Shown: positions 1,825 to 16,371, counted from the first letter of the stretch. The stretch is 64,000 nucleotides of DNA from a virus (IMGVR_UViG_3300025778_000010:32001-96000), one strand, 5' to 3'. Made by a program: numbers and translations. The notes: generated by a model not told the origin, from the letters alone.

Positions 1825-2142
1825 TCAAGATGATGTTACTTTTACACCAGAAACAAACACTGTTACTGATGAAGCTGCGGTAGCTGAAAGCTGAATTGAA
1901 TCTCCTGCATTCATTACCTGCTTAAAATCAAGGACCATAATCTGGCGAGGTGCTAGATCAAGATTCTGATAAAAACCAACGCCAGCAATAGACATTGTTG
2001 TCTGAAGTGCTCCGTTAGTTGAATTATTAATTGTTACAGATGTAATAACATCTGTTTCACCTGCTGGTACAGTATAAACTGTTCCGAGTGAAGTTCCGAG
2101 TGTTCCAGCATAAAATCTAGCTGGTAAGCTTACGACTGCCAT
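1825..2142 (-). CDS. small virion structural protein
   Basis: 105 aa beta-sandwich-like (YTVPAG...GDSIQLSA), tail context. Confidence 0.55.
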   Translation of the reverse strand: MAVVSLPARFYAGTLGTSLGTVYTVPAGETDVITSVTINNSTNGALQTTMSIAGVGFYQNLDLAPRQIMVLDFKQVMNAGDSIQLSATAASSVTVFVSGVKVTSS

Positions 2143-2145
2143 TTT

Positions 2146-2478
2146 TTAAAATACCCCCATGTTTGCGTATAGTGTGTAATTTGAAACTGCGGTATTTACA
2201 TTTGAAATAGCTGCAGTACCTGCTGTATTAACAGCAGAAATTTGTGTTGCTCCCGCAGAGGTAACTGCGGTAATTTGACCAGTTCCCGCATTTTGTACAT
2301 TCAGGATTGATGTATTGGTAGCACCAAGTACATCATTAACGCCTAAAAGATTTCCTAATGATTCTAAAGATTTTGCAAGAAACACAATGTCTTGTGCTAC
2401 AAGCGTTGTACTTTGAAGAGCATCAATTTTTGATTTTACAATAGCTACTTCTGAGCCAAGTGTTGAATAGTCTGTCAT
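2146..2478 (-). CDS. tail-fibre anchor/adaptor protein, paralog of the N-terminus of 8257..8928
   Basis: MTDYSTLGSE...IDALQ...LGVNDVLGATN shared with 8257..8928. Confidence 0.6.
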   Translation of the reverse strand: MTDYSTLGSEVAIVKSKIDALQSTTLVAQDIVFLAKSLESLGNLLGVNDVLGATNTSILNVQNAGTGQITAVTSAGATQISAVNTAGTAAISNVNTAVSNYTLYANMGVF

Positions 2479-2568
2479 GTTTGGTCCACCTCTTTGATTA
2501 TTGTATCAGCAAATCTTAAAAAGTAATAATATATAGACCGCTAACTTCATTAATTATAGCATTAAATT

Positions 2569-3480
2569 CTATAAACCAGTAGTTAGGGTGTGGATAAAAC
2601 CAACCATTACTACTACTCCACAAATTGCAGCCAATGTCCTATAATAGTCTTTCCAAACCGCCCCAAAATACCTTTGCCCTAAAAGCATGCATTTATGGAG
2701 TGGTGACAACATATAGCCAGACCAGCCAATTGCAAACAAGACTGGCAAATAGGTGATGCCAAAAATTGATGCTGTAAGAGCCACAACTCCAGTAAATTTT
2801 TCGCTGCTTCCAAAGGCCCAGCTCATAAAAAATACTAAAAGAAGTATTGGGAACAACAGAACGTGCTTATCTGTATTAGCTAACAAATGATCAAAAAACC
2901 CTGAGTTATAATAAATTATATTGCCAATAATATCCAGAGCTAGTACAAAAAGTACTGTAAAAATTCCTTCTTTAAGATATTTGATTCCATCTAAATTTTG
3001 ACGTTCTCTATGGCCTCGAACAACAATATCTACATCTTCTTCTTTAACTACCCAAAAATCATAAACTAAACTACAAATAATTGCTGCTGTAAGAATTGGC
3101 CAAATACGTCCAAAAAAACTCCAATACCCAATATGTAATGCAGCCATAGGTAATATAACTGATGCTTCTAATGGGGACCAAAAATAAAAATGATGTGCAT
3201 TTAGATAATCAACAATAGCAAATTTTTTACGTTTATTTGGATCTTCTGGTGCAATAGTTCTTAGTACCCCGCCAGAAATAACTGTCCTACCGTTAATTGG
3301 CATTACAGCGGTAGTTGCAGAAGTTAATACCATGACCGCTCTTTTTGATTTAATTCTATTTGCTAACCAACCAAAAACTGGTTGAAAGACATCATATTTT
3401 GTAGCATAATATGAAAGTACAAGAACAAACGCTAATGCTGCAACATATTGCCAATCTGTTAATAAATAACTAAGTGTCAT
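2569..3480 (-). CDS. multi-pass membrane permease (DUF401-like, ion-transporter superfamily)
   Basis: About 8-9 hydrophobic segments; HHFYFWSPL and GYMLSPLHKC motifs. Confidence 0.55.
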   Translation of the reverse strand: MTLSYLLTDWQYVAALAFVLVLSYYATKYDVFQPVFGWLANRIKSKRAVMVLTSATTAVMPINGRTVISGGVLRTIAPEDPNKRKKFAIVDYLNAHHFYFWSPLEASVILPMAALHIGYWSFFGRIWPILTAAIICSLVYDFWVVKEEDVDIVVRGHRERQNLDGIKYLKEGIFTVLFVLALDIIGNIIYYNSGFFDHLLANTDKHVLLFPILLLVFFMSWAFGSSEKFTGVVALTASIFGITYLPVLFAIGWSGYMLSPLHKCMLLGQRYFGAVWKDYYRTLAAICGVVVMVGFIHTLTTGL

Positions 3481-5120
3481 TTTTCAACTACCAATACATA
3501 TATGCCATTCCACCAATCTTTTTCAGATTCAGTAGAATTTAGGACTTTCTTTGAATATAAAACCTTAAGGTTAGATTTTACTATTCCTTCATTTGCTCCC
3601 GCCACAACATTAGTTCCGTTAGCATCATCAAATATCATTATAGCGTTTTTAGCAAAAGATTGTGAATAATATAAGACAGCTTTTGCTGTAGTTTCTTGAT
3701 CATGTGGTCCGTCATAAAAAAACAAATCAATATTTTTAATTAAAGATAAATTTACATCAAACAAATCTGTATTACATACAAAAATTTTGTTTTCTCCAGC
3801 ATATGGCTTGATGTTTTTTTTAAATTCTTCTAAACTATTAATATTTGGAGTTAATATATCTAATCTTTCAGGTTGTGGTGCAATTTCCCATTTATCAACA
3901 AAATAAGCATTTAATTTATTATCTTTAAGGGCTGAAGCTGCGGTAGCACCTAAATATGATCCTACCTCTAAATAATTACTTGATTCTTTTGCTAAAGAGT
4001 TAATTAAAGATTGCACTCTTGAACTTGTTAACCCTGGAACATCAATATCAAGGTCCACATTTACAGAATCAACTAATTGATTAATTACAAGAGTAACTTT
4101 ATCATTTTGTTTTTCTGGATATTTAGCTTTAATAATTTTGTCACAAAATCCACAATCCCAGCAATCAAACTTGCAGTTTTTAATTTTATTACGCCATACA
4201 TTAATGGGTTTATCAACAAGATTTGTCTCTTCAATAAAATCGTTAAAGCCATCAAAAAGTATTGGTTCGTTTGCCACATACTTTTTAATAATATCCATAG
4301 TCTCACGAAGCCTTACATGAGACTCTCGCCCATGCATCTTAATTACATCAATTCCTAAATTATCCAAAAATTCCTGCCAATCTTCACGCCATGGTGGAAA
4401 ATTAGCTACCTTAAGGGATGTAGCAGCATCTTCTTTTTGCCATTTAGGGCATGATACACGACTTATTGGATCATTAAAATATTGTGGTCCTTCTGAACGG
4501 GTATTATTAAATTGATAATGCTCATCCATCATAATACAACCGCCATAGCAGCCTTCATTTGCAAGTAAAGATAGTTTAACGCCATATTTTTCTTTAGCTT
4601 TTTTAAATCTTAAAAGCTTTTCATGATCTCTCATAAGATCTCTGTCAAGATTAATATAATCAAATCCTGCTTTAGATAACTTTTCAATATCTCTAGGTTC
4701 TGATACATTTCTAAGAATTGTATTTTTTACAAACAACTTTGGGAATTTAGATTTAATTTGTCCCGTTGACATCCAGTGGGTGTGAGGAATTGTAGCTGAT
4801 CTAATACCTGCATCATATAAAGGCTTAAAGTTTTTAATCCATAGGTCTAAGTTATCTTGTGAGGGCCTTACCTCTATATTGTTAAAAACTGCTGATGCGG
4901 TTACACCAGTAAATTCTTGAATATTTAAAGCTAGATCAATTAAATATTTATGATCTTCTTCTCCACCAATAAAATTATCCCCCATAGCATCTTGTGTAAA
5001 TGGGGGTATTCGGCAGGTAAAATAAAAATCATAGATAACATGATTGTACTCTTTAAGGAATAAGATAAATTCCTCAAGCTTATCTGGAGCAAGCTTGGGG
5101 TTTAAAGGAACACTAAACAT
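3477..5120 (-). CDS. peptidase-U32-like Fe-S protein fused to a class I SAM methyltransferase
   Basis: LLANEGCYGGC...H, IKMHGRE and CKFDCWDCGFC in the N-part; YLEVGSYLGATA, DLFFYDGPH and IFDD in the C-part. Confidence 0.7.
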   Translation of the reverse strand: MFSVPLNPKLAPDKLEEFILFLKEYNHVIYDFYFTCRIPPFTQDAMGDNFIGGEEDHKYLIDLALNIQEFTGVTASAVFNNIEVRPSQDNLDLWIKNFKPLYDAGIRSATIPHTHWMSTGQIKSKFPKLFVKNTILRNVSEPRDIEKLSKAGFDYINLDRDLMRDHEKLLRFKKAKEKYGVKLSLLANEGCYGGCIMMDEHYQFNNTRSEGPQYFNDPISRVSCPKWQKEDAATSLKVANFPPWREDWQEFLDNLGIDVIKMHGRESHVRLRETMDIIKKYVANEPILFDGFNDFIEETNLVDKPINVWRNKIKNCKFDCWDCGFCDKIIKAKYPEKQNDKVTLVINQLVDSVNVDLDIDVPGLTSSRVQSLINSLAKESSNYLEVGSYLGATAASALKDNKLNAYFVDKWEIAPQPERLDILTPNINSLEEFKKNIKPYAGENKIFVCNTDLFDVNLSLIKNIDLFFYDGPHDQETTAKAVLYYSQSFAKNAIMIFDDANGTNVVAGANEGIVKSNLKVLYSKKVLNSTESEKDWWNGIYVLVVEK

Positions 5121-5681
5121 TTATAAATCTATCTTTGCTTCTTTTTCAGGGTACTTTTGAATACCAAAATTATAATGCATTAAATCAGATGTCTCTTCCA
5201 TATCTTTGCACTCGTCAATTCTTTCTTGCATACCTTTTTTTCTTGCATAAAGATCTTCTAAGGAAAGGTATCCCATTTCTGCTTTAAAAATATCTGGAGT
5301 ACCTAAAAACATGTAAAGTTTGTTATTATAATATTTATTTAACATACAATGCATGATAGCTTTTTCAAATAAATGAGCATTATATTTATCTTCTTCTGTA
5401 AGCGTATATCTTAATTTTTCGCCAACTTGCTCTAATTTATCTTTATCTGTTTGATCATATTGATTGGTGTCTGGCCTTACATTAAAATAACCTTTTCTAC
5501 GTCCAGCAAACTTATAAGCTAAAGCTACTTTTTCTGGAATCACCATGCACTCTGGCAGAGTATCTCTGTAAACAATAAATTCTTCTGTTCTTCCAATAAG
5601 AAAACCTGCATATTGACCAATTTCTTCAATAAAACCTTTTCTTTCATTTACTAAAGAATGCTCATAAATAAAATAAATCAT
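5121..5681 (-). CDS. hypothetical protein (U32 cassette)
   Basis: ORF; start moved to MIYFIYE, directly after the upstream stop. Confidence 0.7.
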   Translation of the reverse strand: MIYFIYEHSLVNERKGFIEEIGQYAGFLIGRTEEFIVYRDTLPECMVIPEKVALAYKFAGRRKGYFNVRPDTNQYDQTDKDKLEQVGEKLRYTLTEEDKYNAHLFEKAIMHCMLNKYYNNKLYMFLGTPDIFKAEMGYLSLEDLYARKKGMQERIDECKDMEETSDLMHYNFGIQKYPEKEAKIDL

Positions 5682-5682
5682 T

Positions 5683-6417
5683 TTATAAATCCAATTCTGC
5701 CCAACCAGCTTTATCTGAACTTTCAAGTTCTAACTTATTCATAACATCTTTTTGTACTAATTCAAGTGTTTTTTGAGTAATAATTGTTTTTTCAACAGCA
5801 TTTTCTAATGCTTTCATTCTTACTTCTTCTGGAAGTTGATAGATAGCTTCAAGATTACCACCATTAATTCTTCCATAGAACATTAAATCATAAGCAGCTT
5901 GACCGCCAAGGCGGGTTGCCCAAAGTTCTGCCTCTAAACGCTCTTCTTCATCATAATCACCAATAATGTCTATATAACGTCTGCCATCTGGCATTTTGCC
6001 TTCTTCAGATTCATTAAACTTAGTAATTAAAGCCATATATTTATCACGTTCTTCGTAAACCATTGTAACTAAATTTTTTGTATTGTAAATAGATCTTTCT
6101 TTTTCACGAATTGTAATATTATGAATTTTCTTTTGAGCAGGAGAATCTGTTTTTTCTAATAATTCTTTTTCTAATTCTACTTCTGCTTGCAATTTTTCAA
6201 TTTTAAATTCATATTCAACAATATTATCTTCTCTTGATTTTAATTCAAGAAGAAATTGTCTTAGCTTTCCAAAATTGCTATATTGTGCTCCTCCAACAAA
6301 GTTATCAATCTTAAATGTTGGAACGCCCCAATTTCTATTTACTGCATATAAAAGCATATCTCTTTGTTCTTTTGAATAGCCGTCAACACGACTTGTAATA
6401 TCGTTAATATATCTCAT
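5683..6417 (-). CDS. coiled-coil hypothetical protein (U32 cassette)
   Basis: 244 aa with E/K-rich heptads. Confidence 0.7.
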   Translation of the reverse strand: MRYINDITSRVDGYSKEQRDMLLYAVNRNWGVPTFKIDNFVGGAQYSNFGKLRQFLLELKSREDNIVEYEFKIEKLQAEVELEKELLEKTDSPAQKKIHNITIREKERSIYNTKNLVTMVYEERDKYMALITKFNESEEGKMPDGRRYIDIIGDYDEEERLEAELWATRLGGQAAYDLMFYGRINGGNLEAIYQLPEEVRMKALENAVEKTIITQKTLELVQKDVMNKLELESSDKAGWAELDL

Positions 6418-6432
6418 TAATTTATCTTTCTT

Positions 6433-7350
6433 TTATGATCGTTGTGAGTTGTATGCAGAACTTCTGCCTGCGGGTCCTTGAGGTTGCATTGAAGATCCGC
6501 CCTCGTACCCTGAATCTGTTATATAGCTATAACGCCAAGCTCTTCTGTTTTGTGATCCATCGTAATTACCCATGCAGTATTGATGGTCTTGACCCATATC
6601 AAAGTTTTCTTCTCCGCAGTTACCAATTGGTTTTGAAACGTTACCTACGTTTGTTTCTGTTGCAACTGACCAACGACGTAAATAATAGCCTCCATTATAA
6701 CCTCCTTCATTACCTGCATAAAGGTAATTTAATTTAGAGGAAATACCTTTTTGTTGACCCCAATATCCACAAACGCTTGATTGTGATTGTGTTTCTGTTG
6801 CAAAAACAAATTTCATACCAATATTATTGTCTGCCCATGTATAACCAACATATTCATGATAAAAAGATGAACCACCCGAACCACCAGTAGTGTTTGAATA
6901 AGCATTTGACAAAGATGTTTGCCAAGTTGCATTTATCATATTAAATTTTACGATAGTTGTTGAAACATTTGCATTACCGTAAGCAAATTGTTGTTCTTTT
7001 TGCATAAATACACCTGAATTACCCAGTGAAACTGGAGCTGAAGCAGCAGTTGAGCCAACTTCTGTTCTCATATTAAACTGCATTACTGCTGGATCTGAAC
7101 CACCTACACCATTATTAGCTTTTGTAATCCAAGCTACGTTGTCATTGGCAAATCCTCCTGGATAACCCGTAGCTGCTGTAAGCACATCTCCTAAAGAAAC
7201 TGGAGTATCATTTGAGTGTAAATATCTATTTACATTTTTCCAAGGTGAGCTATTTTGGTATCCAGAGTGAACATACCCTGTTGTGATAACAGTTCTTAAT
7301 AAAAAACTTACTCTTGGATTATTGTGAATAGTACTTTGTGGAAATGGCAT
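6433..7350 (-). CDS. Kelch-like beta-propeller, probable fibre-tip protein
   Basis: About six 40-45 aa repeats ending in F/Y-x-x-x-T-E/D (FNMRTE, FVFATET, WSVATET, YSYITDS). Confidence 0.55.
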   Translation of the reverse strand: MPFPQSTIHNNPRVSFLLRTVITTGYVHSGYQNSSPWKNVNRYLHSNDTPVSLGDVLTAATGYPGGFANDNVAWITKANNGVGGSDPAVMQFNMRTEVGSTAASAPVSLGNSGVFMQKEQQFAYGNANVSTTIVKFNMINATWQTSLSNAYSNTTGGSGGSSFYHEYVGYTWADNNIGMKFVFATETQSQSSVCGYWGQQKGISSKLNYLYAGNEGGYNGGYYLRRWSVATETNVGNVSKPIGNCGEENFDMGQDHQYCMGNYDGSQNRRAWRYSYITDSGYEGGSSMQPQGPAGRSSAYNSQRS

Positions 7351-7859
7351 TATGAACTCACAATGTAGCTTAATTTAACCCCTTGAACGTTAAGAGAAGG
7401 ATATTTTACGTCAAATGGATCAGCAATATTATCTGGCAAATCTCTTAAAGCTTGGCGATATTCAATAATTTTTTGTTGATCTTCTGCAGAAAATTTAGAA
7501 AAATAATCTGAAAGTACAAGATAGTCTGTTTCCTTAATCATATTATTTCTATTATATCTAATAGCATTAATTTGAGTATTAACTGATTCTAATTTTTCAT
7601 CATCAGTCATGTCAACTGCAACAACATGTGATGTTGGAACATTATTTTCAACAACTGTTACATACTCTAATTTTTGATTTTTTGGATCATATCCAGGTAA
7701 TGTTGGGTTAGATACAACTGGTTTCCAATCATCAAAACCAATTACATGTTCTTCATTAATATCTGCTGGAAATAGCGTTGATGGATAAAGAGATCTGAAT
7801 TCATATTCAGAAATAACTTGACCCAAAGAACCATCTGAGTTAATTTTTGCAAAGTTCAT
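7350..7859 (-). CDS. tail fibre assembly chaperone
   Basis: IRYNRNNMIKETDY...YRQALRDLP motif; start at MNFAK by ATGA overlap. Confidence 0.75.
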   Translation of the reverse strand: MNFAKINSDGSLGQVISEYEFRSLYPSTLFPADINEEHVIGFDDWKPVVSNPTLPGYDPKNQKLEYVTVVENNVPTSHVVAVDMTDDEKLESVNTQINAIRYNRNNMIKETDYLVLSDYFSKFSAEDQQKIIEYRQALRDLPDNIADPFDVKYPSLNVQGVKLSYIVSS

Positions 7860-8257
7860 CGTGTATCCTTCATTACTATATTGCCTCTCCAAGTTGTACC
7901 ATTATCATAACTTACAAATGTTAATGTGTCAACTCCTGTGCTTGTTAGTGTTGGTGGGGTTGCTGATGGATATTTTGAACCCGCAAATGTTAATGTATAC
8001 TGTCCTCCATTTGTAATGGATATTGAAAATGATACTGTACCTGAAGATGGAACGTTAATTGGGGTTAATGTAATTGAAGCTCCTGCTGTAAAAGTAAAAT
8101 CATTATATTGAGAAAGATCTAGGTTTGTATTAGTTGTTAAAGTTCCAAGATCTTGTCTCTTTGTATTATAACCAGCAAGTGTAAATGTGTTTGCTGTTAA
8201 ACCTGTAACAGTTGCACCTGTAAAACTGGCATTAATTACATCTGATAAATTTGTCAT
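7856..8257 (-). CDS. tail fibre protein domain
   Basis: PPTLTSTGVDTLTFVSYDNGTTWRG C-terminal motif typical of fibre proteins. Confidence 0.65.
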   Translation of the reverse strand: MTNLSDVINASFTGATVTGLTANTFTLAGYNTKRQDLGTLTTNTNLDLSQYNDFTFTAGASITLTPINVPSSGTVSFSISITNGGQYTLTFAGSKYPSATPPTLTSTGVDTLTFVSYDNGTTWRGNIVMKDTR

Positions 8258-8928
8258 TAGAATACTCTCCATCCATATGTGGAGTTAGAGTAAATAAATC
8301 TTTTACCCGCTCCATTTACGTTAAAGTTAAATGTTGTTATTGAACCTTGAATAATACCACCTGCACCTGCAGTAACAGTAAATGGAGTTGATGCTGATGT
8401 TCCTGCAGCATCTACAATAATAACTTCTGCTCCAATTGATGGGGCAGAAGGTAGAGTAATTGTAAGTCCTGAAGCTGGAACCACAAAATATCTATCTCCA
8501 TTTACAGCAAGTTTATTTGCAGTAATAATTTGCCATGGATTATAGGAAGCTAAAGCTGAAACTGCAGCAGATGCTGAGTTTGCTGTTGCTGCAATATTAG
8601 AAGAAACTGATTCAAGAGAAGCAATGCGACCATTGTGGTTTGTATAAAGAATATTTAAAGCATTGTATTGGCTTGATAGTGATGATACAGCAGAACCATT
8701 TGATGTTCCATTTACAACGTTAATTGTTGAAGCTCCTGCAGCTGCTACTTGAGCAATTCCCGCATTTGTTGCACCAACAACGTCATTAACACCCAAAGAT
8801 GTTCCTAAAATTTGCAAAGCTTCAGAAAGATAAAGAATATCTATAGCAGCAATAGTGCTACCTTGTAAAGCATCAATTCTGTTTTGAATAGTTCTAGTTT
8901 CACTACCCAGCGATGTATAGTCTGTCAC
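8257..8928 (-). CDS. tail fibre protein with anchor domain, coiled coil and T4 gp34-like repeat
   Basis: ITLPSAPSIGAEVIIVD...YSNSTYGWRV repeat; N-terminus paralogous to 2146..2478. Confidence 0.65.
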   Translation of the reverse strand: MTDYTSLGSETRTIQNRIDALQGSTIAAIDILYLSEALQILGTSLGVNDVVGATNAGIAQVAAAGASTINVVNGTSNGSAVSSLSSQYNALNILYTNHNGRIASLESVSSNIAATANSASAAVSALASYNPWQIITANKLAVNGDRYFVVPASGLTITLPSAPSIGAEVIIVDAAGTSASTPFTVTAGAGGIIQGSITTFNFNVNGAGKRFIYSNSTYGWRVF

Positions 8929-8940
8929 TTTATCTCCTTA

Positions 8941-11900
8941 TTATGCTTGTGCTTCAGTCCAAGACAAACGAGCCAAAATATTAGCCGATGTCAAACCAAT
9001 GTTTGTTGCTGTAATTGTAAGAATATCTGGTCCATTAGGAAATGCTGGCCACGCTTGGTTTCCATTACCTGAAAGAATTGATGTTCCTAAATCTCTAACT
9101 TGTGAAAGATCAAATACGGTAGAGTTATAAGCTGTACCACCGCCGTTATCTGAGTAGAAAGCAAACGCCTGATCTCCGCCAGAAACTGTAGTTATTGGGC
9201 TGGTAACTGGAACGCCAGTTACACCCGTATTATCATGGTAAATAACTTGTGCAAGTGAACCTGCACCTACACGAAGTAATTCCCAATCGTTAGGAATTGT
9301 TACGCCTGTTGGAAATGATGCTGGGTTATGAAGTCCCTGAATTAAGAATTGTCCTTGAGCAAGCACACCAACAGATGATAGCTTTAATTGCATGGTATTA
9401 ATAAGTTCACGAATACCATAGTTTCTTCCAATACCATTATCTACTGAAGGAGCAATACGAATTGAAATAAGTGGGTATGCTCTTTGTACGTTACCAAAAC
9501 TTTGTGTTACAACACCTGCAGGTGTAACAATAGAAGAAGGTAATGTAGATGTATTTGAAATTGTATAAGTAATATTTTGACCTGAAGAAGAAATAACGTT
9601 AAATGTTCCGTTATAAGTTGTATTTTCAGTTACAATTGCAGATGTTGAGCTAACTGAAGTAGATACCACGTTAACTGCTGCTTTATTATAAGTAAATGTT
9701 GTAGATGATGGAGCAGATGTAATTGTATATGTTCCATTAAATGTTGTATCAACACCTGAAACTGTTACTGTTTGTCCCGCAACAAGGTTGTGAGCACCAG
9801 AGGTAGTAAGTGTTGCAACTGTTGATGTTAAAGATTTATTTACAATTTGAGCAACTGTATTAACACCAGAAACTGTTATATTGTATCCAGCTTGGATGTT
9901 GTTTGTTCCTGATAATGTTAAAGTTGCAGTTCCTCCTGTTGCAGACTTAGATGCTACAGAACCTGTTACAGAACCAGAACCTGGAACCTGCATAAAGCGT
10001 TGCATACCTGCTGTAAACAAAAAGTTTTTATCGTCATCAAAACGTCCATCCATAATAACAGATGAACCCCAGTGGCTAATTACTGGTGCACAAGTATTTG
10101 TAATTGTTTGTACTGATACTTGAGCGTTACCTGTTCCATTTTGAATAGATGAATCTGGAATAAATGCAACGTTAGCTGATGTAGCAGACAATGTTGTTGC
10201 AACACCAGAAATGTAAGTTGTCATAGGTTGTCTGCGGTTAATATTAACTGCGTACCCACCTGCTGATGATACATAAGATGTATTTGTAATTGTATAAGAA
10301 CAAATTTCAGTATTTTGATCATCTTTAATAATCAAATATCCTGATGTTGGCCAATATTGAATGTTATCTACATACATAACAATTTCTGTAGGGTTAAGTG
10401 TAGAGCCTACAACTGCAGATCCGCCTGAAACTAAACGGGCATTAAAGAATGGTGAGTTAATAGCCTCATAACGTGCAGGTAAGTTACCTGAACGCATATA
10501 AGCTTCTGTATTAATGTTATTGTTAGCCATTTTGTGGCAATAAAGAATATTTCCTTCTGTAGTACGGAAACCAAAACGAATAAATCCTGCACCATACCAT
10601 GTATAGTCAATATAAACCATCTGCATCTTTGATGGGTCAAGTGTATATTGTGATGGACCTGTTCCATCCATTCTATCTACGTTCCACTGAGTTTGTGGGA
10701 CACGAATTTCTTGAGTTAAAATATAACGACAGTTAGCATTTGTTGAACCTTTATATGATGGAGAAATTTTCATTGTTGTATCGTTATTAATTTCAATAAC
10801 AGTATAGTTGGCACCTTTAATAACAATTTGGTTTCCAACCACAAGCTGCTTACGGAATCTTGTTCCTGTTCCTGTTACAACGTTAGAATACTGTGTAACA
10901 GCAACTTGTCCGTAAAGTTCTTTCTTTGAAAAACGACGAACTACATATAAGTATTGTCCATCGTATTCAAAAAAGAATCCATTTTGATCATTATATAGTC
11001 CGCAACGAGTTGCTGCACCTGTCCAAGAAAGAGCGGTAATCTTTGTATCAATACCGCCTGGCTGAGCATCTGTTGCAAGCATATTTTGTGTTAAATTCAT
11101 TACATAAGTAAAAGAATTTGGCCCTGTTACTGTTGCTACAGTAAATGAACCATTCCATGGGTTGTAAGAACCTGCGGTAGTTAAACCTTCAACCAAAATT
11201 GTGGCACCTGGTTGTAATCCGTGTGCTTGAATTGTAGTTGTTGTAACTGTTACGTTACCAGCTAGGTAGTTGGCTGCTTGAATTGAGTCAATATCATATG
11301 TTGGTGTAAATTTAGCACCAGTTGAAAATTGAATTGCTTTACCTGCTTGATAACGGAAATTACGTCGAGTTTGACGAATAACACGGGTTCCACATACGTT
11401 ATCTTGTGTTGAAAGAATTACACCACCATCAAATGGACGGTGTTGAACGAATCCGTTTGGCTTAGCATATAAACCAGTATTTGTTGTAGTAACAGGATTT
11501 GTAATTGTTTGATTTGCATAAAATTTAAACGTTGTTGGATTTGGAACGTTAATAATTCTATATTGACCTTGAATAGTACATGCTGCATTTTGATTACCAA
11601 TAAGAATTGGTTGTCCTGGAAGCAATCCATGTGCTGTTGGAGTAATTACAGTAATTGTAGAATTTGCTGCACCGTCTGAAAATGCTGTCCATGCATTAAG
11701 GCCAGCGGTTGTAGTGCCTCCTGGGATGTGAGCAGAATCATAAATTCCACCACCCGAAACGTTTGTTAAAGTTCCATCTTTAATTGAACCTGAAACAACT
11801 CCAGAGGCTTTGTACGTAAAGGTATATCCATCTGCAGAAACAGATGCTACTGGGTAAGTTCCTTCAGCAAGAGTATTTGTAGCTTCTTGTATAGAGATAA

Positions 11901-12453
11901 TATCTCCTACGTTTAAGTTTGATTGTGGGAAAGAAACAACGCAAGTAATTAATGAATATGGTGCTGAGCCATCTCCAGTAATAGAAACTAAATCAAAAGA
12001 GTTACCACCTGTTGATTTAGCAAAAAATGATGGGTAATTAGCAGCAAGAACTAATGCTTCCCATTTAGAACCTTGAATACCATATTCAAAGTCAGTATCA
12101 ATAAGAGACTGAGGTGCTGCTACACGCAACTTATTAACTGGATCAAGAAGTGTTTCTGTAAATGTCATTACTTCTGCTTCTTCATCAACAATAATGGCAA
12201 GTGAATCAGTTGACGACATAGCAGAACAATTGTATTTAAGATTAATGGTTGTTGTTGGAGTGTTTGTTGAACCACCAGTAATAGTAAAAGAGTTTGCATT
12301 TAATGTATTATCTGCAAAATTATAGATTACTGTGCCACGTGTAGTGTTAGTAATCAACATTAATCTATCTTGTCTAACAATACGAGGAATTACAATCGTA
12401 TTTGTTGCTGGATTAAAGGTGTAGTATACCTTTTCAATCATTCTTCTTGCCAT
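8941..12453 (-). CDS. large virion structural (tail/baseplate) protein
   Basis: 1170 aa; repeated T-x-x-AHGL-x-x-G-x-x-I beta modules. Confidence 0.7.
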   Translation of the reverse strand: MARRMIEKVYYTFNPATNTIVIPRIVRQDRLMLITNTTRGTVIYNFADNTLNANSFTITGGSTNTPTTTINLKYNCSAMSSTDSLAIIVDEEAEVMTFTETLLDPVNKLRVAAPQSLIDTDFEYGIQGSKWEALVLAANYPSFFAKSTGGNSFDLVSITGDGSAPYSLITCVVSFPQSNLNVGDIISIQEATNTLAEGTYPVASVSADGYTFTYKASGVVSGSIKDGTLTNVSGGGIYDSAHIPGGTTTAGLNAWTAFSDGAANSTITVITPTAHGLLPGQPILIGNQNAACTIQGQYRIINVPNPTTFKFYANQTITNPVTTTNTGLYAKPNGFVQHRPFDGGVILSTQDNVCGTRVIRQTRRNFRYQAGKAIQFSTGAKFTPTYDIDSIQAANYLAGNVTVTTTTIQAHGLQPGATILVEGLTTAGSYNPWNGSFTVATVTGPNSFTYVMNLTQNMLATDAQPGGIDTKITALSWTGAATRCGLYNDQNGFFFEYDGQYLYVVRRFSKKELYGQVAVTQYSNVVTGTGTRFRKQLVVGNQIVIKGANYTVIEINNDTTMKISPSYKGSTNANCRYILTQEIRVPQTQWNVDRMDGTGPSQYTLDPSKMQMVYIDYTWYGAGFIRFGFRTTEGNILYCHKMANNNINTEAYMRSGNLPARYEAINSPFFNARLVSGGSAVVGSTLNPTEIVMYVDNIQYWPTSGYLIIKDDQNTEICSYTITNTSYVSSAGGYAVNINRRQPMTTYISGVATTLSATSANVAFIPDSSIQNGTGNAQVSVQTITNTCAPVISHWGSSVIMDGRFDDDKNFLFTAGMQRFMQVPGSGSVTGSVASKSATGGTATLTLSGTNNIQAGYNITVSGVNTVAQIVNKSLTSTVATLTTSGAHNLVAGQTVTVSGVDTTFNGTYTITSAPSSTTFTYNKAAVNVVSTSVSSTSAIVTENTTYNGTFNVISSSGQNITYTISNTSTLPSSIVTPAGVVTQSFGNVQRAYPLISIRIAPSVDNGIGRNYGIRELINTMQLKLSSVGVLAQGQFLIQGLHNPASFPTGVTIPNDWELLRVGAGSLAQVIYHDNTGVTGVPVTSPITTVSGGDQAFAFYSDNGGGTAYNSTVFDLSQVRDLGTSILSGNGNQAWPAFPNGPDILTITATNIGLTSANILARLSWTEAQA

Positions 12454-12465
12454 TTTATATCTCCT

Positions 12466-13083
12466 TTAAAATAAGTAGCTGCTTGCTGCAAACTTACTTG
12501 TTAATTGTGATTGTGTTAAGGTACTTGTGTATTTTGGATACCAAATTCCTAAATTTAATTGTGCATCATTTGCATACAACTGCATTGCTGCATATGTTGA
12601 GTTTGCTAATGCACTTCCTGAAGGTCCCGTTGGGCCAGTCGCACCAGTTGCACCTTGTGAACCTGTTGGTCCTTTAAGATTTCCCTGCAATGTCCATGTA
12701 GGTGTAGGTGTTGCACTATATTGAAAATAATTTCCTGTTGTTGTATTTAAATATGTATCTAATGCTGCTGGCGATGCTGGATTTGTTCCAACTACTGGGT
12801 CAGCGATTCCTGTATAAGCATATGAGCCACGTTGTCCCGCAACACCCTGTGGTCCTTGTGAACCAGCTGCACCCGCTGGAATTGAAAAATTAAGAACTGC
12901 AGCTGAAGCAGTTCCAGAGTTTGTGACTGATGCATTTTGTCCTGATGCAAGAGTTGTTGTTGTTCCAATTGCAATTGTTGCAGAGGAACCCGCTGGTCCT
13001 GTTGGACCTGTTGGGCCTTGTGCACCTGGTTGTGAGCCAGCAACGACTACCCAAGCACTACCGTTCCAATATTTTAAAGACAT
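12466..13083 (-). CDS. collagen-like tail fibre protein
   Basis: Three Gly-X-Y tracts (GAQGPTGPTGPAG, GSQGPQGVAGQRG, GPTGSQGATGATGPTGPSG). Confidence 0.8.
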   Translation of the reverse strand: MSLKYWNGSAWVVVAGSQPGAQGPTGPTGPAGSSATIAIGTTTTLASGQNASVTNSGTASAAVLNFSIPAGAAGSQGPQGVAGQRGSYAYTGIADPVVGTNPASPAALDTYLNTTTGNYFQYSATPTPTWTLQGNLKGPTGSQGATGATGPTGPSGSALANSTYAAMQLYANDAQLNLGIWYPKYTSTLTQSQLTSKFAASSYLF

Positions 13084-13138
13084 TTATTACATCACACTCC
13101 TTTTAGAATTATATCACCTTAAGCTTAAAAACCTAATA

Positions 13139-13942
13139 TTATACTAAACCTGCTGACATCCATTCTAATGCTGAATTATCTAAGTTTTTTAAACTTAGGT
13201 TATATGCAAAATTTGCTGTTTGATTAACTGAATCTAACAAGTAGTTAGCGTCAGAAATTGTTGAAAGTCCCACCCAGTTTCCATTATATGCATAATAAAC
13301 TTTTCCAAACTGTGCTTCTTGAACAATTCTGCCAGGGACTGTTGAAGGGTCTGGAAAATTAGAAAATGTTGTATAAATCTGAGCATATTGAGCTACATTA
13401 GTTGTATCTGTTGGATCTGCCCAAAACTCATAAATAGTAGGATCTGGAGCAGTTGTAGCAATAGTAACAGCATTATTGCTTGTAATATCATTACTTGCCC
13501 AAAACTCTCCAACATATGGATTTGTTGGTGCAACCGATGAAGTATAAAATAATGCTCCACCATAATCTGATGGGTCTGCCCACAATTGATATTGTGTTGG
13601 GTCTGGAGCAGATCCTGCTCCTTGATACAAAAGGTTTGGTGGGATTGTAGATTGATCATCTGTAACAATCCACATATCTCCAACAAGAGGTTGAGCTGGA
13701 GCATTTGTTTTTGACCCTATAACAAAATATTGATTATTAACAATTGAATTACCTTGATAATTAACAAATATTTGTCCAGTTCCACCGCCACCGCCTGAAC
13801 CTGAACCTAAATCTTGCCAATATGTTGTATACCCACGAAATTTATTTGTAGTTGTATTAAAATAAACTTGACCAGGAAGTCCCACAGATGGATCGGTAGT
13901 TAAACGAGCTACTTGCAAAGCTGTTAAATATGATTTAGCCAA
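13139..13942 (-). CDS. tail fibre-like protein with short AP...W repeats
   Basis: Repeats APAQPLVGDMW, APDPTQYQLW, APTNPYVGEFW, APDPTIYEFW. Confidence 0.6.
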   Translation of the reverse strand: MAKSYLTALQVARLTTDPSVGLPGQVYFNTTTNKFRGYTTYWQDLGSGSGGGGGTGQIFVNYQGNSIVNNQYFVIGSKTNAPAQPLVGDMWIVTDDQSTIPPNLLYQGAGSAPDPTQYQLWADPSDYGGALFYTSSVAPTNPYVGEFWASNDITSNNAVTIATTAPDPTIYEFWADPTDTTNVAQYAQIYTTFSNFPDPSTVPGRIVQEAQFGKVYYAYNGNWVGLSTISDANYLLDSVNQTANFAYNLSLKNLDNSALEWMSAGLV

Positions 13943-13956
13943 GTGGGACTCCTAAA

Positions 13957-16371
13957 TTATCCAGTAATTACTACGTTGTAAAGAATTCCTGTTGATGGAG
14001 CAGATGCAAATCCAATTGTTACCGTATTTGTATCTTTGTGAGTAATATCTACTTCAACTTCAGCCCATTGAGTATCTGGTGATGCTGAAGCTTGATAAAC
14101 AGCAACTGTAACATCTCTTGTTGATAAGTTATGAACAATATCAAAGCTAGATGCTGAGTTATTACCCGTAATTGTAGCAGATAGTTTTTGGATTCCATAT
14201 GTTCTTGCTCCACCGCTAACACCTGTTGCAGTTTGTGAAACCGTATCAGATGAAAGAATAATGTTATTGCTTGAAATTGCAAGACCAGTTCCAACATTTA
14301 CCTTTAATCCGCTATTTGTTGTTGACAAACCACCTGCGGGATTAAGATTTAATTGAAGTGTTCCGTTGTAAAGGGAAAGACCTGAATTACTTGTAGGTCC
14401 CGTGCTTGTTGTGTCAGAAGAAGAACCTAATGATACTGAAACTTGTGAACCAACAACCAAAATACCATTTCCAGCTGTAATTGTTCCAGAACCAGAGAAC
14501 TGTGTCCAGTTAATTGGATCAGTTCCAATAACAATAGATTGTTTGTTTCCTGTTCCTTGGGTGTTCATTACCCAACCAGTGTTATTTTGTGTTGGTACTG
14601 TTACATACTCGCTTGTGTTTACAGCAACGAATACTAAGTCTCCAGGTGCTACTTGTCCAGCAATATGGTTATCTGAATCTACTGCACGAGTAAGTACCCA
14701 CTTGCTTGAAGAACTACCAGTATTTGTTACAACATAAATACCGTTCCATGTTGCATTTGTTTCATTCTTAATAAGAACACGATCATATTGATCTGGTGTG
14801 TAATTATCAATTGTAAATACACCGTTAATTCCAGATGTAAGTGTTGCACCTACACCGTAACCTCCGCCATTATCAGCTGTTCCAGCAGTATAAACTACTG
14901 TTCCATAAGTTGATCCTAATGGTGCTGTGGTTGCTGCCTCTACTGCATCGTGTGAGTTAAATCCTGTTCCTAAGTTATCAACATATTGCTTTGTAGCAAC
15001 TTGTAGAGCTTGACTTGGATCTGCAGAAACATATACTTGAGCAAATGTTGGTGTAGCTGTTGATCTAATATCTTGAGCTGTATCAAGAGTAATTGAACCG
15101 CTGCCATTTGTAATTGTTACGCCATTTGTTGCACCTTGTGAAAGTGTAGCAACTGCATAAGTTCCATCTGCTTTACCGATTAAAATCTTTCCTGATGTAG
15201 GAGTTGTTGAGGTACCTGTGCCACCTTGTCCAACTGAAAGAGCTGTTGTTAAACCTGAAAGGCTTGTAATACTTGAGTTAGCTCCAGATTCTGCTGCACC
15301 CAAGTTAGTACGTGCACCAGCTGCTGTTGTTGCTCCAGTACCGCCATTTGTAACACTAAGAGCATTTGTTAAGCTAAGTGTTGGAATTGTTACTGTTCCA
15401 GTAAATGTTGGAGATGCAAGTCTTGCAACAGATGCAGGAATATCAGCATCTACAAGAGACCTAAATGTTGGTGTTGCATCTGAACCAGTTGCTGGGCCAG
15501 CAAAAACTGTATTCTTTGCTTGAGTATTAAGTGTTGCTGTAAGTGTTCCAGTTGTTGTTACTGGTGAATTACTTACTGTAAAGATTGATGGGAGTGACAA
15601 AGCAACGCTTGTAACACCTGTATTAGCAATAGTTAATGTATCGCCAAGATTTGTTGTTACAGTTGATGTACCACCATTTACAGAAATTCCAGTTCCTGGG
15701 GTTACTGTAATTGAAGGGTGTACAAGTGCTGAGTTAGGAATATTTGTAAATGTATTTGTTGATCCTGACAAAGATTTATTTGTAAATGTTTGTGTTGAAT
15801 CAAGATCAGCAATTGTATGTGTTCCTGAGTTGTAATAAGCCTTAAATCCTGCTGTTGAATCTAACCAAATATCACCAGCTACTGGTGCAGTTGGTGCAGA
15901 TGTTGCAACTGGAATATTAATTGATGCTCCACCTGTAGTTGAAGCAGTAAATGTTGACTTACCGCCTGTTACAGTAAGAGTTCCGCCCAATGTTGTTGCT
16001 GAACCGTTTGGTACAGCCAATGATCCTGGTAATGTAAGAGCAGAGGCAAGAGAAATAGTAACTGTATTTGTGGCATTAGATACAACTACTTGATTGCTTG
16101 TTCCTGCTACTGTTACGGCTCCAGTAAAGTTGTTTACAGAGCTTACTGTATTGTAGGTAGAGCTAATTTGCTCCCAAGCATAAGTTGCTGGGGTTGTTGG
16201 GTAGTTTGACCAATATGATTGGTAAAGGGCACCACGATTGTTGTTTGCGGTGGTGCTAAAGTATAGTTGACCTGCATTATAAATTGATGGTGCAGATGAT
16301 GCTGAATGGATTACAGCATTTAATAGCTGATTTCCTTTAAGATTAATATTTGTTAAAAACGTTTTTGCCAT
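13957..16371 (-). CDS. long tail fibre protein
   Basis: 804 aa, T/S/G-rich; GGTGATTAAGARTNLG, VATKQYVD and RVLIKNET...NGIY fibre motifs. Confidence 0.8.
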   Translation of the reverse strand: MAKTFLTNINLKGNQLLNAVIHSASSAPSIYNAGQLYFSTTANNNRGALYQSYWSNYPTTPATYAWEQISSTYNTVSSVNNFTGAVTVAGTSNQVVVSNATNTVTISLASALTLPGSLAVPNGSATTLGGTLTVTGGKSTFTASTTGGASINIPVATSAPTAPVAGDIWLDSTAGFKAYYNSGTHTIADLDSTQTFTNKSLSGSTNTFTNIPNSALVHPSITVTPGTGISVNGGTSTVTTNLGDTLTIANTGVTSVALSLPSIFTVSNSPVTTTGTLTATLNTQAKNTVFAGPATGSDATPTFRSLVDADIPASVARLASPTFTGTVTIPTLSLTNALSVTNGGTGATTAAGARTNLGAAESGANSSITSLSGLTTALSVGQGGTGTSTTPTSGKILIGKADGTYAVATLSQGATNGVTITNGSGSITLDTAQDIRSTATPTFAQVYVSADPSQALQVATKQYVDNLGTGFNSHDAVEAATTAPLGSTYGTVVYTAGTADNGGGYGVGATLTSGINGVFTIDNYTPDQYDRVLIKNETNATWNGIYVVTNTGSSSSKWVLTRAVDSDNHIAGQVAPGDLVFVAVNTSEYVTVPTQNNTGWVMNTQGTGNKQSIVIGTDPINWTQFSGSGTITAGNGILVVGSQVSVSLGSSSDTTSTGPTSNSGLSLYNGTLQLNLNPAGGLSTTNSGLKVNVGTGLAISSNNIILSSDTVSQTATGVSGGARTYGIQKLSATITGNNSASSFDIVHNLSTRDVTVAVYQASASPDTQWAEVEVDITHKDTNTVTIGFASAPSTGILYNVVITG

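Follow-up and report, generated by a model that had tools for sequence, protein, structure and literature searches.

The stretch of DNA analysed here, 64,000 nucleotides (nt) long and referred to below at its full length as the window, comes from the virus IMGVR_UViG_3300025778_000010, whose genome of 108 kb is complete according to CheckV. The minus strand of the window carries one long series of structural and fibre genes, and inside this series, at positions 2569-8928 on the minus strand, lies a cassette of eight open reading frames (ORFs) combining tail-fibre genes with genes for a two-domain enzyme and a permease-like membrane protein. In gene order, their products measure 223, 138, 180, 305, 244, 201 (or 186), 547 and 303 amino acids (aa). 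An initial reading made from the sequence alone (hereafter the sequence-only reading) had described eight tightly coupled genes at this place, and the layout is borne out: every junction is either an overlap or a gap of 0-15 nt, and the enzyme and permease genes are joined by an ATGA overlap. One base past the stop codon of the 244-aa gene stands an ATG, so that 5681 is the probable start of the 201-aa ORF, which would then encode 186 aa. A 90-nt intergenic gap (2479-2568, minus strand) closes the cassette, with a strong AAAGAGGTGG ribosome-binding site ahead of the next gene (2146-2478). Since an anchor domain, described below, is found in the products of both 8257-8928 and 2146-2478, the eight genes are bracketed by two anchor copies. 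Scans of the cassette for T4 late promoters, sigma-70 promoters and terminators did not rise above chance and revealed no convincing promoter or terminator within it. The orthologues PHM2_098-101 of cyanophage P-HM2 fall in the late class in published RNA-seq data (PMC5082946, supplementary file 3).

The 547-aa enzyme gene (3477-5120, minus strand) encodes two domains, an N-domain of residues 1-345 and a C-domain of residues 346-547. The former (4086-5120, minus strand) is a divergent triose-phosphate isomerase (TIM) barrel of the U32 superfamily, with seven invariant cysteines. U32 proteins are an emerging class of O2-independent hydroxylases and, to our knowledge, most U32 subfamilies are without an assigned function. 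An AlphaFold model of the N-domain built from the homologue alignment is a TIM barrel (predicted local distance difference test (pLDDT) 92.8, predicted template modelling (TM) score 0.91), and its top solved match by Foldseek is the U32 protein Mk0906 (5d88; E 4e-7, TM score 0.70 on the target), with a root-mean-square deviation (rmsd) of 4.2, most other barrels deviating by some 8 or more. With the VIA all-against-all aligner, 5d88 reached Z 16.8 (rmsd 3.1, 223/247 residues) and the runner-up, MTHFR, Z 13.1. Profile-profile alignment of the N-domain with four E. coli U32 paralogues gave a probability of 49% in local mode and of 78.8% (E 1.9e-6) by global hhalign. This global alignment pairs N80 (the N of 'LNT'), P127, R160 (the R of 'RELS'), E189-G190, C224 and K261/G264/R265 with U32 positions; among them N80, R160 and K261/G264/R265, which answer to the non-cysteine U32 motifs, are near-invariant in the family. 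The clusters nearest to the enzyme in the language-model Atlas are labelled Peptidase U32 (0.93).

Searches with the N-domain against Pfam (E<=10), NCBIfam and the PDB sequences, as a single sequence and as profiles, returned no named family or solved structure, and 61 of its homologues gave nothing above noise against Pfam, with PF01136 matching one of the 61 at E 0.033. The connection to U32 is made by bridging sequences, which we consider the strongest evidence for its membership. The family profile finds six seven-cysteine paralogues in one Dehalococcoidia genome as well as one more distant protein. A profile containing the window protein matches the six at E 1e-26 to 1e-31 and the seventh at 3e-18 (computed with Z set to 1e6), and a profile made of the phage fusion proteins alone still matches them at 2e-7 to 1e-15 (5/6 at <=3e-12) and 5e-6, respectively. 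PF01136 matches the six paralogues at 3e-7 to 0.056 (5/6 at <=1.2e-4, three of them over the gathering score) and the seventh protein at 1.4e-13 (51 bits), the scores of the bridging proteins ranging from 24 to 51 bits. The phage profile thus matches proteins that themselves match PF01136. The N-domain therefore belongs to the U32 Fe-S superfamily, as a member so divergent that the Pfam model does not reach it. The U32 fold that the sequence-only reading had assigned to this domain is confirmed by the modelled structure, by the profile alignments and by the bridging sequences.

The homologues of the N-domain were gathered by an exhaustive phmmer search, and the seven cysteines (C191, C195, C224 and C316/320/323/326) are kept in its 281 cluster representatives and invariant in the 61 homologues. 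C191 and C195 lie in the motif NEGCYGGC (4536-4559, minus strand), the first part of a putative Fe-S site; E189-G190-C191 is aligned to E173-G174-(R)-C176 of UbiU, and C191 is thus one position off C176. The codon of C224 (4449-4451, minus strand) occupies the place of the UbiU cluster ligand C193, Cys being paired with Cys by hhalign, while the motif KMHGRE (4323-4340, minus strand), which contains K261, G264 and R265, aligns with the 'KIEGR' motif of UbiU, TrhP and RlhA. The four remaining cysteines form CKFDCWDCGFC (Cx3Cx2Cx2C; 4143-4175, minus strand), a candidate second cluster or Zn site that is invariant in 61/61 homologues, kept in the Dehalococcoidia paralogues and missing in the canonical E. 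coli U32 proteins. Two of the UbiU [4Fe-4S] ligands (C169, C176, C193 and C232), namely C169 and C232, have no counterpart in the phage N-domain; C195 and the four C-terminal cysteines could complete the Fe-S site. Like the canonical U32 proteins (UbiU/UbiV, TrhP/YegQ, RlhA/YdcP and Mk0906), the phage protein has the TIM barrel, the motif positions and a Cys-rich loop after the same strand, but it differs from them by its extra Cx3Cx2Cx2C motif, its lack of the U32 C-terminal domains and its two non-conserved ligands, as well as by its methyltransferase fusion, its phage origin and its place in fibre cassettes.

The C-domain (3477-4085, minus strand) is a class I S-adenosylmethionine (SAM)-dependent O-methyltransferase of the COMT/CCoAOMT type. 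It matches Pfam Methyltransf_24 (E 5e-9, exceeding the cut-off), and its model (pLDDT 95.5) resembles the O-methyltransferase 5x7f (Z 17.1), the sugar O-methyltransferase MeT1 (6g7d; 16.9), 8c9v (16.6), 3tr6 (16.3) and TrmR (5zw3; 15.6). These matches are near-tied, and the enzymes concerned are small cation-dependent O-methyltransferases; candidate motifs for the metal-binding Asp/Asp/Asn triad, YDGPH (residue 470) and FDDAN (residue 497), are present. As modelled, the domain fits O-methylation, although its fold names no substrate. Together, the Methyltransf_24 match and the fold confirm the earlier claim of a SAM methyltransferase fused to a U32-like domain.

Three partner genes precede the enzyme gene and one follows it. 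The 305-aa product (6433-7350, minus strand) is a Gly/Ser/Asn-rich protein of the T4-GC351 'sericin-like' family (phrog_1417, E 8e-44) that matches the cyanophage GC351 genes. Its six repeats of about 46 aa, at residues 40, 91, 135, 180, 225 and 272 (self-hhalign 93.8%), would fit a propeller; the protein has no Pfam match, and the GC351 profile has no PDB profile match. Next comes an acidic helical protein of 244 aa (5683-6417, minus strand) from the T4-GC353 family (phrog_1409, E 5e-27), whose homologues immediately precede the enzyme gene in cyanophages, as ORF140 does in the Ralstonia phage RP12; Atlas and PDB searches returned nothing informative for it. The 201-aa ORF (5121-5726, minus strand; 186 aa from the ATG at 5681), listed as an unknown protein in the sequence-only reading, could be placed in the T4-GC352 family, since a profile of the related loci matches PHM2_099 (GC352) at E 3e-17. 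Downstream of the enzyme, the 303-aa product (2569-3480, minus strand) is a polytopic membrane protein with about 6-7 hydrophobic segments that matches phrog_14035 and is DUF401-like. The description of this protein as a DUF401-like permease stands as far as the Pfam score is concerned (40.6 bits, cut-off 24), but the profile is only partly covered: the best stretch corresponds to profile positions 307-389 of 393 only, TIGR00529 scores 38.8 bits for a cut-off of 378, and the protein falls about 90 aa short of the family length. The literature on DUF401 yielded only false matches (DUF4012/DUF4015).

Homologues of the enzyme were found in 126 isolate phage records, from cyanomyoviruses and the Ralstonia phages RP12/RP31, and in at least 543 IMG/VR stretches. 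Linkage was counted over the 80 best IMG/VR loci (57 clusters at 90% identity), the denominators being the loci with enough flank. A GC353-like gene lies within 2 kb upstream of the enzyme in 73/73 loci, and one of the GC351 type is present no farther than 5 kb upstream in 60/60, while the permease is found within 4 kb downstream in 47/66 loci (adjacent in 36/75) and the tail-fibre assembly chaperone upstream in 18/60. The permease also adjoins the enzyme in locus L008, in RP12 and, with one gene between, in S-H25. Being optional (about 70% of related loci), it gives no support to the suggestion of the sequence-only reading that it supplies metal or substrate.

Among the isolates, P-HM2, P-RSM1, S-H25 and S-ShM2 carry the same gene set after their tail-fibre genes; GC351-352-353-354 follow these directly in P-HM2, with intervening genes in P-RSM1 and S-ShM2. 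This four-gene set of T4-like cyanophages (T4-GC351-354, PHM2_098-101 in P-HM2), listed as hypothetical clusters in 5/16 genomes by Sullivan et al. 2010 (PMC3037559), is homologous to that of the window, with enzymes 44-45% identical. The cyanophage genes differ in being annotated just as hypothetical or 'sericin-like' and in mostly lacking the permease, and in the window, whose phage has a DnaE-type backbone, GC352 and GC353 have changed places. The Ralstonia jumbo phages RP12/RP31, from a betaproteobacterial host, show the gene order of the window in ORF142-ORF138; in RP12 these are ORF142 (weakly GC351-like, 1e-4), the small ORF141, ORF140 (GC353-like, 3e-33), ORF139 (the barrel) and ORF138 (the permease, 6e-78). 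Unlike the window enzyme, ORF139 consists of the barrel alone (40% identity), without the methyltransferase domain. The polymerase of the window phage (61969-63969, minus strand) is a DnaE-like Pol III alpha that shares 59% identity with its counterparts in the Streptomyces phages BillNye, Circinus and Wakanda. The backbone thus resembles those of large actinophages, and a T4-like cyanomyovirus identity of this phage was rejected on account of its DnaE-type polymerase. A close homologue of the enzyme was also binned in a Micrococcales metagenome-assembled genome. With carriers that include cyanophages, RP12 and the DnaE-type window phage, the cassette is therefore common to three or more phage backbones that are unrelated and whose hosts differ widely. 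It is a mobile, late-expressed cassette, with the enzyme as its hub, located inside the tail-fibre regions of unrelated phage lineages, and the linkage of the enzyme to the same partners and to fibre genes proposed from the window recurs in many other genomes. We found no link between U32 and cyanophages or phage fibres in the literature searched.

The fibre side of the cassette consists of its first three genes. The 223-aa fibre-like protein (8257-8928, minus strand) carries the anchor domain in its N-terminal 100 aa or so; its best family, phrog_31104 (E 6e-13), has no function annotated, and a weak second match is a tail-fibre proximal subunit. Over about 100 aa, the anchor domain is 45% identical between this protein and the 110-aa product of 2146-2478. 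The 223-aa protein is followed by a 138-aa tail-fibre domain protein (7856-8272, minus strand; phrog_9017 tail fiber protein, E 2e-9) and a 180-aa tail-fibre assembly chaperone (7350-7892, minus strand), a label that holds, as PF16778 (Phage_tail_APC) scores 39.7 bits, over its cut-off of 26.6, and several PHROG tail-fibre assembly families match as well. Upstream of the cassette lies a gene whose product of 804 aa resembles proteins annotated as tail fibres in many phages. Elsewhere in the window, a 494-aa protein (315-1799) has a 45%-identical paralogue of 511 aa just outside the window (G000:C1:29913-31448). The fibre region is thus built of duplicated pieces, namely the anchor pair and the 494/511-aa pair. 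A step in composition was also seen, with a G+C content of 0.32-0.34 and negative GC skew over 2001-8000 and a G+C content of 0.37 and positive skew in the upstream fibre genes (8001-16000), which could mean horizontal acquisition, or merely reflect amino-acid content. A near-DNA search against the phage collection gave zero matches.

Beside the distant viral or cellular U32-like genes, no homologues of the partner genes were detected. On phage contig L053, a 23%-identical homologue of the enzyme stands among large upstream ORFs of 1222 and 604 aa, presumed fibre proteins without a family match, together with a Gly-rich 309-aa protein and a chaperone-like gene. Another distant homologue, in the T4-like contig L035, is accompanied by two 2-oxoglutarate (2OG)-Fe(II) oxygenases and a flavin-dependent tryptophan halogenase (L035:9501-14328), neighbours that look like a ring-tailoring island near regA, gp44 and gp45. 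Tandem pairs of U32-like paralogues occur at L029:4613-6602 (viral) and L050:788-3354 (Arcobacteraceae), and may recall the UbiU/UbiV and TrhP1/TrhP2 heterodimer pairs.

In cells the U32-like family is sporadic (5/151 sampled Dehalococcoidia genomes). Dehalogenimonas has three copies, two of which adjoin reductive dehalogenase (rdhA) genes and two B12-radical-SAM/PqqD proteins; at L039 and L042 (Dehalogenimonas CP139473.1), neighbours of about 715 aa combine B12-binding, radical SAM and PqqD. Such neighbours are peptide-maturase-like and may hint at peptide substrates in cells. A Phycisphaerae copy has URO-D-family genes on its flanks. In the Dehalococcoidia genome G018, three operons encode 2Fe-2S, molybdopterin and flavin adenine dinucleotide (FAD) subunits of the xanthine-dehydrogenase family followed by a U32-like protein, an association that is a new observation. 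Each of them (L076, L077 and L078) adjoins a histidine kinase and a response regulator, and one copy adds a second U32-like gene and an uncharacterised protein of 388-439 aa. The U32-like proteins of these Mo-hydroxylase operons belong to the same seven-Cys clade as the phage enzyme, in an aromatic-ring redox context, but are cellular, anaerobic and without methyltransferase, propeller or permease partners. All of these cellular contexts are those of aromatic-ring redox. U32 chemistry is thought to need an electron sink (PMC10990095), and the Mo/FAD/Fe-S partner could be that sink.

We propose that the barrel would hydroxylate an aromatic or heteroaromatic carbon without O2, in the manner of RlhA, TrhP and UbiU/V, with prephenate as the likely oxygen donor and the cysteine clusters relaying electrons, and that the fused domain would O-methylate the new hydroxyl into a methoxy group. 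The target would be encoded in or beside the cassette, as the propeller or a fibre-tip protein, which would make of the cassette a fibre-decoration system. Both steps have precedents: the hydroxylations by UbiU/V precede O-methylation steps in ubiquinone synthesis (PMC10990095), and B. subtilis TrhP and TrmR act on tRNA U34, where a hydroxyl is capped as a methoxy group (PMC6599085, PMC6158493). A two-domain tailoring enzyme that hydroxylates, then O-methylates, and thereby decorates the propeller or fibre tip is the reading we favour, tentatively, and rate at slightly less than an even chance. The sequence-only reading had already put forward a hydroxylate-then-methylate enzyme, and this logic does fit a pair of U32-type and COMT/TrmR-type domains, while the virion-protein or receptor target that came with it stays conjectural. 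We favour a protein target because the non-enzymatic partners travel with the enzyme across unrelated hosts (cyanobacteria, Ralstonia and the DnaE-type phage). It is nonetheless the least secure element of the proposal, a leading guess of modest confidence to which synteny points. In a more specific form, possible but doubtful, the enzyme would hydroxylate Tyr, Trp or His of its own propeller or fibre-tip protein without O2 and then O-methylate it, the module being swapped between phages whose hosts are cyanobacteria, betaproteobacteria and others.

A number of points speak against such a role. Hydroxylase activity has never been reconstituted in vitro, even for canonical U32 proteins (PMC10990095). 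PF01136 has no match to the phage N-domain (E<=10) or anywhere in the phage genome, just two of the four UbiU ligand positions are retained, and cluster binding is a prediction from the cysteine pattern. As the RP12 protein has no methyltransferase domain, methylation is not essential to the module, and the methyltransferases closest in fold to the C-domain have small molecules, sugars or RNA as their substrates instead of proteins. The distant homologue of contig L035 adjoins regA/gp44/gp45, not fibres. Synteny is the single line of argument that suggests a protein target, and a permease that is both frequent and coupled in translation to the enzyme is more in keeping with a small molecule as the substrate than with a protein.

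That permease is central to another explanation, in which a free or membrane-bound aromatic metabolite (a quinone, a phenolic or a benzimidazole-type compound) would be hydroxylated and O-methylated, the permease importing the precursor or exporting the product and the propeller and other partners binding or using the compound, while the fibre location would reflect late timing and an insertion hotspot only. We consider it unlikely, albeit with several points in its favour. The permease gene is coupled to the enzyme gene by the ATGA overlap and recurs beside it in three lineages, one of them represented by RP12; the substrates of UbiU/V are quinone precursors in the membrane (PMC10990095); homologues in cells have Mo hydroxylases, rdhA and URO-D methyltransferases as neighbours; catechol and sugar O-methyltransferases are closest in fold to the C-domain; and other phage loci add a halogenase and 2OG oxygenases. 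However, the permease is absent from about 30% of the related loci and from most cyanophage isolates (12/126 records have it), the cassette holds no other biosynthetic genes, its invariant partners are non-enzymatic and fibre-type, and no single host-specific metabolite would suit so wide a range of hosts. Less probable again is a modification of nucleic acids, whether by a phage version of TrhP and TrmR (tRNA U34 converted to 5-hydroxyuridine (ho5U), then to 5-methoxyuridine (mo5U)), by an RlhA-like enzyme (5-hydroxycytidine (ho5C) in rRNA) or through a 5-hydroxy/5-methoxy pyrimidine in phage DNA. Genetic work ties both of the RNA-linked U32 subfamilies to hydroxylation of pyrimidines at C5 (PMC6599085, PMC5727448), the U32 proteins of B. 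subtilis are paired with the O-methyltransferase TrmR (PMC6158493), and one distant homologue sits in a replication/regA block. The B. subtilis system, TrhP1/TrhP2 (YrrO/YrrN) with TrmR (YrrM), resembles the phage enzyme in its hydroxylate-then-O-methylate logic, and TrmR is among the close C-domain folds (Z 15.6, the best being 17.1), but it is one of many near-tied folds, and the Pfam match of the phage methyltransferase is Methyltransf_24. Moreover, separate genes in B. subtilis contrast with a single polypeptide in the phage, whose partners are fibre-type proteins and a permease. The phage tRNAs (Asp-GUC, Arg-UCU, Leu-UAA, Gly-GCC, Gln-UUG, Asn-GUU and one odd tRNA-like gene) are not of the types carrying 5-oxyuridine derivatives (xo5U), 0/7 having such an anticodon. 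In addition, the enzyme has a Cys knuckle in place of the C-terminal extensions of TrhP/RlhA, it has no nucleotide-metabolism genes as neighbours, it is expressed late, and its gene is always found in fibre cassettes with non-RNA partners. The tRNA alternative offered by the sequence-only reading is hence made less likely by the phage tRNA set, the missing RNA-enzyme extensions and the late expression; host RNA or phage DNA may still be the target. Isoelectric point did not separate RNA-binding from other U32 proteins. As for the tRNA-like gene, detected by ARAGORN outside the window (G000:C1:102188-102281), it has a four-base anticodon (ctaa) and an unassigned identity; unless it is an artefact, it may act as a frameshift or suppressor tRNA.

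The barrel could also be no hydroxylase at all, but a peptidase or collagenase that processes fibres, or a redox-inactive scaffold, with the methyltransferase acting alone. U32 was first described as a collagenase family, the nearby fibre proteins are Gly-rich, and there is no U32 protein for which hydroxylation can be assayed in vitro (PMC10990095). Nevertheless, we regard this as very improbable, for the seven invariant cysteines in Fe-S-like spacing are hard to explain in a protease, every U32 protein characterised by genetics maps to hydroxylation, and fusion to an O-methyltransferase is chemically sensible only if a hydroxyl is created.

The phage enzymes add to the U32 class a new architecture, in which seven cysteines are combined with an O-methyltransferase fusion, and a new habitat in hundreds of phage genomes, some of them from oxygen-producing hosts. 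The defined genetic context makes the question of the substrate testable in the culturable carriers P-HM2, S-ShM2 and RP12. Additionally, the Dehalococcoidia Mo-hydroxylase operons may give a lead to the electron acceptor that U32 chemistry still lacks. If the enzyme does modify the propeller or fibre-tip protein of its phage, the U32 family would gain its first substrate that is a protein, and receptor binding would be tuned by a post-translational modification of a new kind. A fibre-tip target would reveal an unrecognised means by which phages tune adsorption, while a metabolite or nucleic acid target would represent a new auxiliary metabolic or epigenetic function.

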